NCBI GenBank assembly: GCA_000092065.1
Contig: CP000587.1
Origin: Ostreococcus lucimarinus
Taxonomy: Eukaryota
Length of the DNA: 64,000 nt
Strand: one strand, 5' to 3'
The notes beneath the pieces were generated by a model, which worked only from the letters and a program-made list of their open reading frames with translations, did no database searches and was not told where the DNA came from. Positions 46,290-48,602 of the stretch are shown here, in pieces. The number at the start of each line of letters is the position of its first letter. Positions within the stretch are counted from its first letter, which is position 1. The position numbers and the translations under genes were made by a program.

Positions 46290-48602
46290 TTAGACGGTCG
46301 TCGCCTCGGTTGGTACGGGTGGGTTCCATTTGGCCTCGTACGTGCCGATCGGGAGAACGCCGACTTGCTCAGCGATAGCGTCGTCAAACTTCTCGGTGTT
46401 GCTACCGCTGTGCATGTGCGTGACGACGCCGTCCTTGAACACAAAGAACGTCGGCGTCGACTTGACGGCCAAGCGGTCACGCGCAAGGTGGATGGTACTC
46501 GCATTCTCGTTCCCGTAAATGCGCACGTATCGACACTTCTCGCGGTTGTCGCGCGCGCTTTGTTCAAAGTACGGCAAAAACTTCTTGCACGGCATGCAAG
46601 AGGTAAAGCCGACTTGCAGGACGACGGCGCGTCCCGTGCCCATCTCCTCTTCGAGGACTTGATCGACAGCGGCTTCGGTGTGCAACACTTGCGCCACCTC
46701 GGTCCCGATCACCGACTTATACCAGGTTTCGAATTGATCGAACGTTACTGACGACTCGCACTGCACGTCTATGTCGCAGACGAGCTCACGAACTTCGTCT
46801 TCGGGCAGGCGCACGCCCATGGCGGCGACCATGCGCACGAAGGCGTCCAAATCAATGGCGTCATCGTTAATGTCACCACCAAACTTCTCGAAAAGCTCGC
46901 GAAGTTGGATAGCAGACACGAGTTGCGGCGATCGGCCGACTTCTTTGCCGATCGCAGAACGCACGCGACGAATATCAGCCATGTACCTGAATCGGAAAGA
47001 GCCACCCGCGGCGGCGCCTCGCACGCCTTCGAGAGAGTTGGACCCGCCTATGATGAGCGGAGCAGCCGCCTTACCAGCTTGCACGACGCTCAGCTTTGGC
47101 ACCAGATGCGACCACTTGTCGAAGTTTCTCGCCGCGCTACCGCTGACGACCCATCGTTCCAAGCCACCGCGAGCGCAACGGCAGTTCTCGACCTTGGCCA
47201 AGTGCACCGCCATTCTCGTCGCCCATGCTTTCCACTCTTCTTCATCCTCGCAGTCATCAGCCGGAGGCTTAGCGTTCGCCCACTCTGGTTCGATCCATGA
47301 AATGGCGAGATCGGCTTCTCTGAAATCAGCATTCGTGCGAAGAACACCGTCTCTGAAGAGCGCGACGTGTACAGCTTCGTGGCCGGCGGTGACGACACCG
47401 GTCAAACCGCTCATCGCGTTGTCGGGATCGTCACTATCGAGGGTTTGACCAATCTTGACTCGTCTAGCGGCGTCGCCCCACAAGTCTTGGTGACCGTAAC
47501 CGTGCGCCTCGGCACCCGTGACGACGGTGACGTCCAAACCGACGGCGTTGCGCAACAGCTCCTCGGTTTCTTCGCGTTCGCGGCGTCCCTCGAAAGGGTT
47601 CAAAGTTTCCATCGCGGCGTACACGCTCGTGCCGCCCAACTTCTCGTCAGCGTGCCAAACACCCGGCAACGCGACAGAGACGGAACCTTGCCACTTCAGC
47701 TCCTTGGTGAGCGAGCGCAAAGCCGAGCCGACGGCGTTGATATCCAGCAGGGCGCCCTCGTCCAACGGAGCGGTGATGAGCTCAGACTCGAGTTCACCCG
47801 TGCGCACGTTCACGATCGCAGCGCTGACGATGCCTCCACTCGCGTACGCGCCAAGAATCGCTCTCGGGCCTTCGGCATATACCGATTCAAACGAGGTTTC
47901 CTCCTCCGCCCCGCGCGCGTCCTCGTCCACCTCCATGTCGGCGATACCCCGGCATTCATCCCCCTCCGCGCACGACGCCTTCTCTCCTCGCATCTCCATA
48001 CCGACTCGTCCGAGCGCCATCACCCCAGCCCCCATCGCGCCTCCAATCTTCAATCGATTGCTCGAGATCAACTTATACAGCACGCTCGCCGCGAGGCTGA
48101 TGGCCGGCATCGTCGCCAGCTTCACCGCCCAGCCCATGCCAACCTCCGCGAACAGCGCCTCGATCGCCGGCAATCCTCGCAGCGGTTCGCTTTTATCGCG
48201 TTTCAGCACGTGTATCGTCTCCATCGCCTCCGCGAACGTCACGCCTTGATGTTTCTTCGCGTCGTACGCCGGATCGCTGATGTCCACGTACCACACCTTG
48301 CCCTCGCCCCTCCCCGTCCCCTCGAGCGCGCTCTTCAGCGTCTGGCACACCGGGCACGCGCCGTCGTACAGGTACGCGTACTTCCAGTTCGCCGGTTCTT
48401 CGTCCGCGACCTCGGCGTCGTCGCTCGTCGCGCGCGTCGCGAACGACGCGCGACGTCGGCGCGCGACCGGCGCGACGTCGGCGCGGCGGCTCGACGGCGC
48501 CGCGCGCGCGCCGCGCGTCGAGGCGGACGTCGCGGCGCCGCACAAAGATCGAGGCGCGCACGTTTGCGCGCGCGCGCGCGCGAGCGGCGCGGCGCGCGGC
48601 AT
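46290..48602 (-). CDS. Multidomain redox protein: presequence + DUF393/DCC thiol-disulfide oxidoreductase-like + ROK/ASKHA sugar-kinase-like + EF-hand pair + C-terminal thioredoxin-like (CMPC) domain
   Basis: ATG at 48602. DCC 'YAYLYDGACPVCQ'. ASKHA/ROK-like 'ILGAYASGGIVSAAIVNV...VSVALPGV...TVVTGAEAHGYG...LTGVVTAGHEAVHVALF'. EF-hands 'FEKFGGDINDDAIDLDAF' and 'EDEVRELVCDIDVQCESSVTFDQFETW'. Trx 'VVLQVGFTSCMPCKKFLPYFEQ...STPTFFVFKDG'. Confidence 0.4.
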   Translation of the reverse strand: MPRAAPLARARAQTCAPRSLCGAATSASTRGARAAPSSRRADVAPVARRRRASFATRATSDDAEVADEEPANWKYAYLYDGACPVCQTLKSALEGTGRGEGKVWYVDISDPAYDAKKHQGVTFAEAMETIHVLKRDKSEPLRGLPAIEALFAEVGMGWAVKLATMPAISLAASVLYKLISSNRLKIGGAMGAGVMALGRVGMEMRGEKASCAEGDECRGIADMEVDEDARGAEEETSFESVYAEGPRAILGAYASGGIVSAAIVNVRTGELESELITAPLDEGALLDINAVGSALRSLTKELKWQGSVSVALPGVWHADEKLGGTSVYAAMETLNPFEGRREREETEELLRNAVGLDVTVVTGAEAHGYGHQDLWGDAARRVKIGQTLDSDDPDNAMSGLTGVVTAGHEAVHVALFRDGVLRTNADFREADLAISWIEPEWANAKPPADDCEDEEEWKAWATRMAVHLAKVENCRCARGGLERWVVSGSAARNFDKWSHLVPKLSVVQAGKAAAPLIIGGSNSLEGVRGAAAGGSFRFRYMADIRRVRSAIGKEVGRSPQLVSAIQLRELFEKFGGDINDDAIDLDAFVRMVAAMGVRLPEDEVRELVCDIDVQCESSVTFDQFETWYKSVIGTEVAQVLHTEAAVDQVLEEEMGTGRAVVLQVGFTSCMPCKKFLPYFEQSARDNREKCRYVRIYGNENASTIHLARDRLAVKSTPTFFVFKDGVVTHMHSGSNTEKFDDAIAEQVGVLPIGTYEAKWNPPVPTEATTV

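Follow-up and report, generated by a model that had tools for sequence, protein, structure and literature searches.

A calredoxin-related fusion protein of Ostreococcus lucimarinus that joins a DCC domain, a predicted polyphosphate-glucokinase-derived pseudokinase, an EF-hand pair and a thioredoxin

Does a single gene of the marine picoalga Ostreococcus lucimarinus join two thiol-redox domains, a sugar-kinase fold and a pair of EF-hands in one chain, and, if so, is its product a kinase under Ca2+ and redox control? The question is raised by an open reading frame (ORF) of contig CP000587.1, located in a stretch of 64,000 nucleotides (hereafter, the window). An earlier note had read this ORF as a one-polypeptide fusion of such modules behind an organelle presequence. 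Its translation is identical to that of an uncharacterised "predicted protein" of O. lucimarinus CCE9901 (XP_001418952.1; UniProt A4S0D0). The ORF is unbroken over 770 codons of the minus strand, which the note had left unstated, and all four modules were found in the order proposed, namely, DCC, ROK-like, EF-hand pair, and thioredoxin (Trx; Table 1). Literature searches found no published description of a DCC-ROK-EF-Trx architecture, in agreement with the remark that the combination was not recognised as a known one.

Table 1. Features of the fusion gene and its product, with positions in the window.
Feature	Position	Strand	Basis
Complete single-exon CDS, 770 aa + stop	46290..48602	(-)	Identical to XP_001418952.1 / A4S0D0
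N-terminal presequence, residues 1-65, probable organelle transit peptide	48408..48602	(-)	Composition only
DCC1-like (DUF393) thiol-disulfide oxidoreductase domain, residues 73-188	48039..48386	(-)	Pfam PF04134
DxxCxxC motif, D80-G-A-C83-P-V-C86	48345..48365	(-)	Within DCC domain
Conserved linker, residues 189-244, low predicted order	47871..48038	(-)	Alignment + AF2
Conserved Cys pair C211-x5-C217 (SC...ECR)	47952..47972	(-)	Alignment
ROK-fold domain from polyphosphate glucokinase, residues 245-555, predicted catalytically dead	46938..47870	(-)	Profiles, AF2, Foldseek
T362-G363-A364-E365, counterpart of ROK/PPGK "NDAD" motif	47508..47519	(-)	Alignment
EF-hand pair, residues 560-632, homologous to calredoxin EF3-EF4	46707..46925	(-)	Pfam, profile, AF2
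EF1 loop GGDINDDAIDLDA, degenerate: G at position 1, one-residue insertion, A at 12	46842..46880	(-)	Alignment
EF2 loop DVQCESSVTFDQ: D at 1 (D612), Q at 3, E at 5, S at 6, Q at 12	46734..46769	(-)	Alignment
Calredoxin-type thioredoxin domain, residues 637-750	46353..46694	(-)	Pfam, profile, Foldseek
Trx active site C669-M-P-C672, then K673 (= calredoxin K242)	46587..46598	(-)	Alignment; PMC4911631
G697-N698-E699-N700 "GNxN" (= calredoxin G266-N267-A268-N269)	46503..46514	(-)	Alignment; PMC4911631

A fusion of this kind may be an artefact of gene modelling, such that what are really two or three neighbouring genes (DCC; ROK-like; EF-Trx) read through in frame or are split by an unrecognised intron or processing site. 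In favour of this, an O. tauri annotation of 650 aa (OUS47342.1) begins within the DCC domain, and family members without this domain are known (Mesostigma, P0068, and P0110). Against this, a run of 770 codons without a stop has a probability of approximately 7e-11 at the local composition, a second O. tauri model covers the full length (XP_003080382.2; 765 aa), the linkers are conserved (including the Cys-pair motif), and the indels between clades keep the frame. The identical order was also found as single ORFs in a relative with 40-46% GC and in Cymbomonas, as well as in a Tetraselmis transcriptome contig. Such an artefact is extremely improbable on this evidence. Two narrower candidates were ruled out as well: a chance read-through ORF, by the probability given above together with the conservation, and an unspliced intron in the Mamiellales-specific loop (residues 378-398), where the clade indels do not shift the frame and the amino acids are conserved.

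Searches of related algae, which had been proposed for this fusion, found that it is conserved across prasinophyte-grade green algae rather than unique to this genome. Collinear fusions are present in Bathycoccus-like relatives, Cymbomonas, and one Tetraselmis transcript. The collinear orthologues are 62-89% identical, are called as single genes, and lie in a conserved gene order (PNO1 / gene / Methyltransf_PK), which the Bathycoccus-like relatives share. All four Pfam domains exceed their gathering thresholds in the genome-derived Cymbomonas sequence and in the Tetraselmis chui MMETSP transcript, and Mesostigma has a version without the DCC domain. An exhaustive single-sequence search recovered 25 relatives among 1.84 billion representatives, with none detected in Chlamydomonas or land plants. 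Word-indexed searches with the ROK-domain and EF-Trx profiles returned almost only fragments and close relatives, and no calredoxin orthologues.

The start of the protein has the Ala/Arg/Ser-rich, organelle-type composition that had been claimed for it. Ala (18), Arg (13), Ser (7), and Thr (5) make up most of the first 60 residues, among which only one is acidic, and residues 1-70 are only 19-38% identical to the homologues. This presequence is probably an organelle transit peptide, for a plastid or a mitochondrion. Arabidopsis DCC1 is mitochondrial. Calredoxin (CRX) is a stromal, plastidial protein (PMC4911631). There is no strong transmembrane segment in the 770-aa protein (KD-19 hydropathy maximum 1.65), and a membrane anchor was rejected, as the hydropathy peak falls in a beta-strand.

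For the first redox module, the PF04134 match spans residues 78-188 (E = 1.9e-19; 71.4 bits vs. a gathering threshold of 27.8) and covers positions 2-112 of the 113 in the profile. This full-length match and the DxxCxxC motif are shared with Arabidopsis DCC1 and other DUF393 proteins. In its context, the motif reads Y-D-G-A-C-P-V-C-Q, as had been pointed out, and it is kept in every family member whose sequence includes the DCC region. Unlike Arabidopsis DCC1, the domain forms here the N-terminal module of a chain of 770 aa; unlike other DCC1-like proteins, it is followed by a family-specific Cys pair (SC-x5/6-ECR). Every member that reaches the DCC domain has this pair, and the members consisting of ROK-EF-Trx only all lack it. 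A PDB sequence search with the DCC part found no relative and no solved structure. Arabidopsis DCC1 acts as an organellar reductase of a specific target, CA2 (PMC7598583).

The central domain had been taken for an ASKHA/ROK-like kinase. The fold and the homology were borne out, but not by a Pfam match in this protein: PF00480 (ROK) gave none at E<=1 in the O. lucimarinus sequence, and reached 25.6-39.6 bits (threshold 22.9) in six relatives (P0061, P0063, P0066, P0067, P0071, and P0108). The NCBIfam model for polyphosphate-glucose phosphotransferase (NF045942) matched with E = 8e-8 and 32.3 bits against a cut-off of 250, which indicates a homologue and not an equivalog. A family profile aligned with the polyphosphate/ATP-glucomannokinase of Arthrobacter sp. 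KM (PDB 1WOQ) across the whole domain (E = 2e-27). In structure, an AF2 model built from a diverse 16-sequence alignment (pLDDT 70.6, vs. 46 with 15 close Mamiellales sequences; linker regions <50) has 1WOQ as its first Foldseek match (E = 8e-10; TM-score 0.71), and over 30 further ROK chains, kinases and repressors among them, rank behind it. The domain shares with 1WOQ and the bacterial polyphosphate glucokinases (PPGKs) the short ROK form, in which the zinc motif CxCGxxGCxE is absent, and the segments GLPG, xGxGxGxA(L/F)xxDG, an N after the beta-hairpin, and AG(I/V)xGAA.

The catalytic residues are a different matter. Compared with 1WOQ and two bacterial PPGKs, the motif DxGG[ST] is changed to Y..G, NDAD to TGAE, and GTG to G[R/H/..]G. 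At the position of the catalytic-base Asp, all 16 family sequences compared have Gly (G363), and the metal-binding Asp of DxGxT (phosphate-1) is a Tyr in every member that covers the site, in the context LG(A/V/I)Y...G. The phosphate-2 Thr is lost, its position varying among R, H, L, V, and K across the family, and a Trp-rich acidic segment stands where the ExGH sugar-binding loop would be. In addition, Ostreococcus has SGS instead of GGG, as well as an insertion in the phosphate-2 loop. In the ROK kinase NagK, D105 (the catalytic-base Asp of the N-D motif, as also in SgGlkA) and D6 have been mutated, and the substitutions D105N and D6N/A abolish the activity with a loss of at least 1,000-fold (PMC10031466).

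These changes bear directly on the suggestion of the earlier note that the protein couples signalling to carbohydrate phosphorylation, i.e., that it is an active ROK-type sugar kinase or polyphosphate-dependent glucose kinase under Ca2+ and redox control in an organelle. The fold and the clear homology to polyphosphate/ATP-glucomannokinase favour such an enzyme, as do the NCBIfam PPGK model being the sole kinase-type match, the partly kept adenosine motif GG(S/A), and the invariant acidic E365, which lies two residues past the lost Asp and is conceivable as an alternative base. Set against them are the loss of the base, the metal ligand, the phosphate-2 Thr, and the sugar loop, the two changes specific to Ostreococcus, the low NCBIfam score, and the fate of the corresponding point mutants; an active kinase is thus very unlikely, and the proposed sugar-kinase function was not supported. 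The domain is nevertheless strongly conserved. Its identity is 92% between Ostreococcus clades and 65% to a Bathycoccus-like relative, comparable to that of the Trx domain, and five family-invariant residues (W436, W441, P447, W460, and R463) occupy the former sugar-loop region. Purifying selection on it is evident from these comparisons. With base, metal ligand, and sugar loop all lost in a domain so strongly conserved, we interpret the domain as a pseudokinase derived from polyphosphate glucokinase, the prediction resting on residue loss in all members. It is a clear eukaryotic case of a ROK/PPGK pseudoenzyme, embedded in a redox protein unlike its bacterial relatives, and a tempting mis-annotation as "sugar kinase" is corrected.

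Of the two EF-hands that had been claimed, the paired helix-loop-helix architecture is supported by prediction, but the Ca2+-binding loops are both non-canonical. In the AF2 model, the first hand consists of a helix (residues 564-574), a strand (582-584), and a helix (585-594), and the second of a helix (601-611), a strand (618-620), and a helix (621-631), with pLDDT values of 74-86. The Pfam model EF-hand_7 (PF13499) scored 21.5 bits in the O. lucimarinus protein (threshold 30) and 34-56 bits in its relatives, and profile matches identified the pair as homologous to those of troponin C, calmodulin, and CRX. The position-12 Glu is absent from both Ostreococcus loops. Non-canonical EF loops sometimes still bind Ca2+ or Mg2+. 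Judging from the loop residues, Ca2+ binding by the O. lucimarinus pair is doubtful. The loops are canonical in most non-Mamiellales relatives, which suggests that the thioredoxin was probably Ca2+-gated in the ancestor.

The C-terminal domain with its CMPC site is a thioredoxin, as had been proposed. It passes the Pfam threshold for PF00085 (24.8 vs. 23.5 bits), and the AF2 model has a Trx fold that superimposes on Trx h1 with a TM-score of 0.91 (normalised to the target) and an rmsd of 1.3 A. The Ostreococcus active site reads SCMPC rather than WC[G/R]PC, and its redox properties may differ.

The likeness to calredoxin that had been noticed reflects homology. The best PDB match of the O. lucimarinus protein is calredoxin (5e37; E = 1.4e-9), and the EF-Trx family profile also has 5e37 as its best match (E = 1e-35), with the EF pair aligned to CRX residues 113-190 and the Trx domain to 207-322. 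By these comparisons, the EF-Trx module is a homologue of, and collinear with, the EF3-EF4-Trx part of calredoxin. The affinity is clearest in other family members (29-41% identity); for the Ostreococcus Trx domain, the local scores against CRX and Trx h1 differ by a small margin (128 vs. 108, with 26% identity each). As in the Chlamydomonas reinhardtii protein (Cre03.g202950; PDB 5E37), an EF pair is directly followed by the Trx domain, CxPC is followed by Lys, the GNxN motif is present, and the Trx-proximal EF loop has Asp at position 1; a transit-peptide-like N-terminal extension and a green-algal distribution are shared as well. T667, K673, N698, N700, and D612 correspond to the CRX path residues T236, K242, N267, N269, and D157, and GNxN is invariant in a 13-sequence EF-Trx alignment. 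In CRX, this motif is part of the communication network from EF4 to the active site, and CRX reduces PRX1 in a Ca2+-dependent manner (PMC4911631). The Ostreococcus protein is unlike calredoxin in having two EF-hands rather than four, with a ROK-like domain ahead of the pair, and in carrying the PPGK-derived pseudokinase and (in most members) the DCC domain upstream. It also differs in its lost Ca2+ ligands, in SCMPC in place of WCRPC, and in a Trx domain only 26% identical to that of CRX. The Ostreococcus protein is probably Ca2+-insensitive, with the residues of the EF-Trx interface kept.

Taken together, the dead kinase residues and the degenerate Ca2+ sites point to an undescribed calredoxin relative and not to a sugar kinase. 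We consider it reasonably probable that the product of this gene, in prasinophyte-grade green algae, is a soluble, organelle-targeted thiol-redox protein with several domains, including a pseudokinase and a calredoxin-type module; the most likely role is that of an organellar thiol-redox protein with no link to carbohydrate phosphorylation. The EF-Trx half would most likely be, like calredoxin, a CxxC thioredoxin that relies for its activity on contacts with the neighbouring EF-hand, and by homology it may pass electrons to targets such as 2-Cys peroxiredoxin. The CxxC of the DCC domain and the conserved Cys pair may form a second redox centre, which could receive or pass reducing equivalents within the same chain or a dimer. 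The pseudokinase would serve as a scaffold, a dimerisation module, or a regulatory module that binds a ligand or partner. The ancestral protein was probably a Ca2+-gated thioredoxin, a gating that Ostreococcus would have lost.

To our knowledge, no characterised protein other than calredoxin directly links Ca2+ sensing to thioredoxin activity in a chloroplast, and calredoxin has so far been treated as a Chlamydomonas-type protein with four EF-hands. Our results show that marine picoalgae that are ecologically dominant (Ostreococcus and its Bathycoccus-like relatives), along with other green algae that branch early, have a larger relative, in which the calredoxin-type EF-Trx unit shares one chain with another CxxC domain and a polyphosphate-glucokinase predicted to be dead. 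It is a candidate for plastid redox wiring in algae without canonical calredoxin. With the interface residues kept and the Ca2+ ligands lost, Ostreococcus may offer a natural experiment on EF-to-Trx communication.

A more active part for the pseudokinase is also conceivable. It may be the main sensor of the protein, binding a metabolite or polymer (sugar phosphate, nucleotide, or polyphosphate) or a partner through its Trp-rich surface and gating both redox centres allosterically. The strong conservation of the domain, including the five invariant residues of the former sugar loop, and the loss of the EF ligands in Ostreococcus would agree with this, and the ROK repressors among the Foldseek matches (Mlc and Lmo0178) show that the fold has been reused as a non-catalytic ligand sensor. 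As is predicted for the Ostreococcus protein, these Mlc/NagC-type repressors and Lmo0178 use the ROK fold for sensing or scaffolding and not for catalysis. They have, however, retained the sugar-binding and zinc motifs and bear a DNA-binding domain, and the Ostreococcus protein has neither. Moreover, it has lost the canonical sugar ligands (N, D, E, and H), and a plain scaffold or dimerisation role accounts equally well for the conservation. We regard a main-sensor role as possible but on the unlikely side, and prefer the thiol-redox protein described above. A ligand input of this kind would replace the Ca2+ input that has decayed in Ostreococcus.

On a longer time scale, the ROK-EF-Trx core, whether or not a DCC domain precedes it, could be an ancient Viridiplantae sensor-responder in which the pseudokinase and Ca2+ together gate a calredoxin-type thioredoxin. 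Calredoxin would then be a simplified descendant or sister, and in Ostreococcus the Ca2+ input would be lost and the pseudokinase left in control. We hold this scenario to be quite unlikely as a whole. The core was found in prasinophytes, Chlorodendrophyceae, and Mesostigma, and it would therefore predate the split between chlorophytes and streptophytes. Example ligands for such a sensor-responder would be polyphosphate, a sugar phosphate, or a nucleotide.

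On the minus strand, the open reading frame 46290-48758 has from its first ATG a 770-codon frame (46290-48602), at the coordinates given in the earlier note; at the composition of the window (61.5% GC), the chance of 770 stop-free codons is ~7e-11. The translation agrees at every residue with XP_001418952.1 (UniProt A4S0D0, "predicted protein" of Ostreococcus lucimarinus CCE9901), which makes the locus an annotated, uncharacterized, single-exon gene of this marine picoalga. The O. tauri orthologue XP_003080382.2 (P0040) is complete, with 765 aa. It conflicts with a second public model of 650 aa (OUS47342.1, P0021), in which the Met start lies within the DCC domain and the CxxC motif is lost, so this start was probably mis-called.

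In Pfam searches, a DCC1-like domain (residues 78-188; 71.4 bits, threshold 27.8) and a Thioredoxin (Trx) domain (residues 658-743; 24.8 bits, threshold 23.5) were recovered, EF-hand_7 (residues 567-629) stayed under threshold (21.5 vs 30 bits), and no ROK domain was found in the O. lucimarinus protein. Residues 255-509 have a sub-threshold NCBIfam match to polyphosphate-glucose phosphotransferase (E 8e-8). The DCC domain contains a DxxCxxC motif, and the conserved linker after it holds a Cys pair (C211/C217, SC-x5/6-ECR) that occurs in all members extending to the DCC domain but is absent from the DCC-less forms. A "NCRCARGG" insertion (C474/C476), found only in Mamiellales, lies within the ROK-like domain. 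Neither element matched a known motif; the two are candidates for additional redox or metal sites. Residues 1-65 are rich in Ala/Arg/Ser/Thr, with one acidic residue among the first 60, and are weakly conserved (19-38% identity to homologues). Organelle transit peptides typically have such a composition, in agreement with the presequence proposed earlier; no convincing transmembrane segment was found in the protein. Calredoxin (CRX) of Chlamydomonas reinhardtii is stromal (PMC4911631), and Arabidopsis DCC1 is mitochondrial (PMC7598583).

The proposal that all modules belong to one chain is borne out by the uninterrupted frame and by the homologues. The close ones (62-99% identity, 736-806 aa) all have the same collinear chain, and among the distant matches (28-41% identity), too, the proteins are long and the matched region lies mid-chain. 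With the middle domain alone as query, HMMER run exhaustively against 1.84 billion representatives returned only 25 proteins. All four domains (DCC1-like, ROK, EF-hand_7, and Thioredoxin) exceed the Pfam thresholds in Cymbomonas tetramitiformis KAK3245275.1 (P0061, 826 aa), the homologue P0066 (733 aa), and its cluster-mate, a Tetraselmis chui MMETSP0491 transcript (P0108, 775 aa). Mesostigma viride P0067 (551 aa), P0068, and P0071/P0110 have ROK, EF, and Trx domains without DCC. This distribution indicates an old fusion that is widespread in early-branching green algae. At the transcript level, the Tetraselmis sequence supports the presence of the modules in one mRNA, which, together with the collinear chain in homologues, makes a gene-fusion artefact very unlikely.

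The 62%-identical form is a single 806-aa gene call; its contigs have 40-46% GC, and this value and the identity lead us to regard it as probably "Bathycoccus-like." Its locus (L001) sits between genes for a PNO1-type KH protein and a Methyltransf_PK protein. The same two neighbors flank the window ORF with one extra gene intervening, so the two are syntenic orthologues in different genera. The extra gene, located in a second low-GC patch of the window (0.516), encodes a 531-aa protein with EF-hand_13 and EF-hand_7, which we take to be PP2A B''/TON2-like. It separates the fusion gene from the Methyltransf_PK gene, and these two directly adjoin in L001, which suggests a lineage-specific insertion or loss.

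Features of the window discussed in the text
Feature	Coordinates	Strand	Remark
1577-aa ORF	21827-26560	-	
N-terminal Xaa-Pro-Lys methyltransferase-type protein	43335-44243	+	Methyltransf_PK, E 3e-73; housekeeping, syntenic with L001
531-aa EF-hand protein	44283-45878	-	
Multi-domain fusion ORF	46290-48602	-	
"NCRCARGG" insertion (region)	47157-47192	-	
SC-x5/6-ECR Cys pair	47952-47972	-	
PNO1-type KH protein	48843-49634	-	KH_PNO1_2nd, E 7e-41; housekeeping, syntenic with L001
602-aa ORF	49617-51425	+	

A 13-sequence profile of the middle domain matched the Arthrobacter polyphosphate/ATP-glucomannokinase structure 1WOQ (E 2e-27, positions 15-266 of 274), with other ROK kinases as weaker matches behind it. 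An AlphaFold2 model from a diverse alignment (pLDDT 70.6, pTM 0.60; ROK-like, EF, and Trx regions mostly 75-90) retrieved 1WOQ first in Foldseek (E 8e-10, TM 0.71), followed by calredoxin and then >30 ROK kinases/repressors. Alignment with 1WOQ and two bacterial proteins of polyphosphate glucokinase (PPGK) type revealed that every catalytic signature is altered in all aligned algal members. Phosphate-1 G(I/A)D(V/I)GG(S/T) is replaced by LG(V/I/A)Y...G, (I/L)NDADAAG by (M/V/L)(T/S/A)G(A/P/S)EAxG with an invariant Gly, phosphate-2 LGTG by LG(R/L/K/V..)G (AGHE plus an insertion in Ostreococcus), and GGG by GG(S/A) (SGS in Ostreococcus). The sugar loop NxE(F/L)G(H/Q) is gone, and a segment with invariant W436, W441, P447, W460, and R463 stands instead. 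In the ROK kinase PsNagK, the catalytic base is D105 of the N-D motif and the metal ligand is D6; D105N and D6N/A reduce activity at least 1000-fold, and phosphate-2 T132 also contributes (PMC10031466). These D105 and D6 positions are Gly and Tyr in the algal family, and N104-D105 of S. griseus glucokinase aligns opposite its T-G. With base, metal ligand, and sugar loop replaced family-wide, the suggested coupling to carbohydrate phosphorylation is unsupported. In this domain, the sequences of two Ostreococcus clades are 92% identical, and identity to the Bathycoccus-like protein is 65%; its rate of change is nevertheless as low as that of the redox domains. The domain is under purifying selection and is a putative PPGK-derived pseudokinase, predicted to be dead but functional as a non-enzyme.

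Calredoxin (5E37) was the top PDB sequence match of the whole protein, via the Trx domain (E 1.4e-9; ordinary thioredoxins ~1e-5), and the best among all PDB chains for a profile of the EF pair and Trx (E 1e-35). Within this match, the counterpart of the EF pair is CRX 113-190 (EF3-EF4), and that of the Trx domain is CRX 207-322 (E 2e-22). Two communication paths link EF4 to the active site in CRX, one through K242 beneath the C238/C241 disulfide and the other through N269, which touches Ca2+ ligand D157; the network includes Q154, L235, T236, N267, A268, and N269 (PMC4911631). Aligned counterparts of the communication residues are K673, C669/C672, N700, D612, F666, T667, and N698. Among 13 aligned EF-Trx sequences, G-N-x-N and T-x-C-x-P-C are invariant; the residue after the latter is K or R with a single exception. 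Local scores of the family Trx domains are 128-201 against CRX (24-41% identity) vs 56-108 against Chlamydomonas Trx h1, with a narrow margin in O. lucimarinus (128 vs 108). The calredoxin resemblance noted earlier therefore extends to domain order and path residues, and the C-terminal module is calredoxin-like.

Unlike in CRX, the Ca2+ ligands have degenerated in Ostreococcus while the EF-Trx interface residues are retained. Most non-Mamiellales members have two canonical 12-residue loops (e.g., DADKSGTITPDE and DVDGTGDISFEE), and the Bathycoccus-like protein has a canonical EF2 only. In Ostreococcus, EF1 (GGDINDDAIDLDA) carries Gly at loop position 1 and Ala at position 12 and is one residue longer; in EF2 (DVQCESSVTFDQ), positions 3, 5, 6, and 12 are Gln, Glu, Ser, and Gln. 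EF-hands are classically inactivated by losing the bidentate Glu12. Since both loops lack it, Ca2+ sensing by the O. lucimarinus protein appears doubtful; of the claimed EF pair, the fold module stands, with degenerate ligands. Ostreococcus EF2 aligns with CRX EF4, which has been reported as the hand enabling Trx activity.

A single chain carries two CxxC domains, a PPGK-type domain predicted to be dead, and a calredoxin-type EF-Trx unit. We rate it as a putative calredoxin-type sensor-responder thioredoxin with added modules, every part coming from a known family. The protein may act in an organelle as a disulfide reductase or redox relay, in which the Trx domain would work like that of calredoxin, probably on targets such as 2-Cys peroxiredoxin, and the DCC domain with C211/C217 would form a second redox site. 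The pseudokinase may serve as a scaffold, dimerization module, or ligand/partner sensor, and the Ca2+ switch would have been lost in Ostreococcus. A literature search found no paper on this architecture, its calredoxin relation, or the pseudokinase, in line with the view that the fusion is undescribed. Public databases already hold the sequence under generic names, and relatives have automatic JGI names that combine "DCC family oxidoreductase / thioredoxin" or "NBD/HSP70 family sugar kinase." For researchers on redox regulation or Ca2+ signaling in algae, the predicted function would be worth a test.

Elsewhere in the window, the 1577-aa ORF codes for an AAA_16 NTPase with many TPR repeats after it (STAND-like) and coincides with the lowest-GC stretch (0.515-0.526 vs mean ~0.62). 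The 602-aa ORF, two genes from the fusion gene, is thioredoxin-like in its C-terminal part (Thioredoxin_2, 24.6 bits, under the threshold of 27; motif SACAFCQ). Called from a GTG, this ORF overlaps the PNO1 gene at its end, and the true start is therefore probably further downstream.
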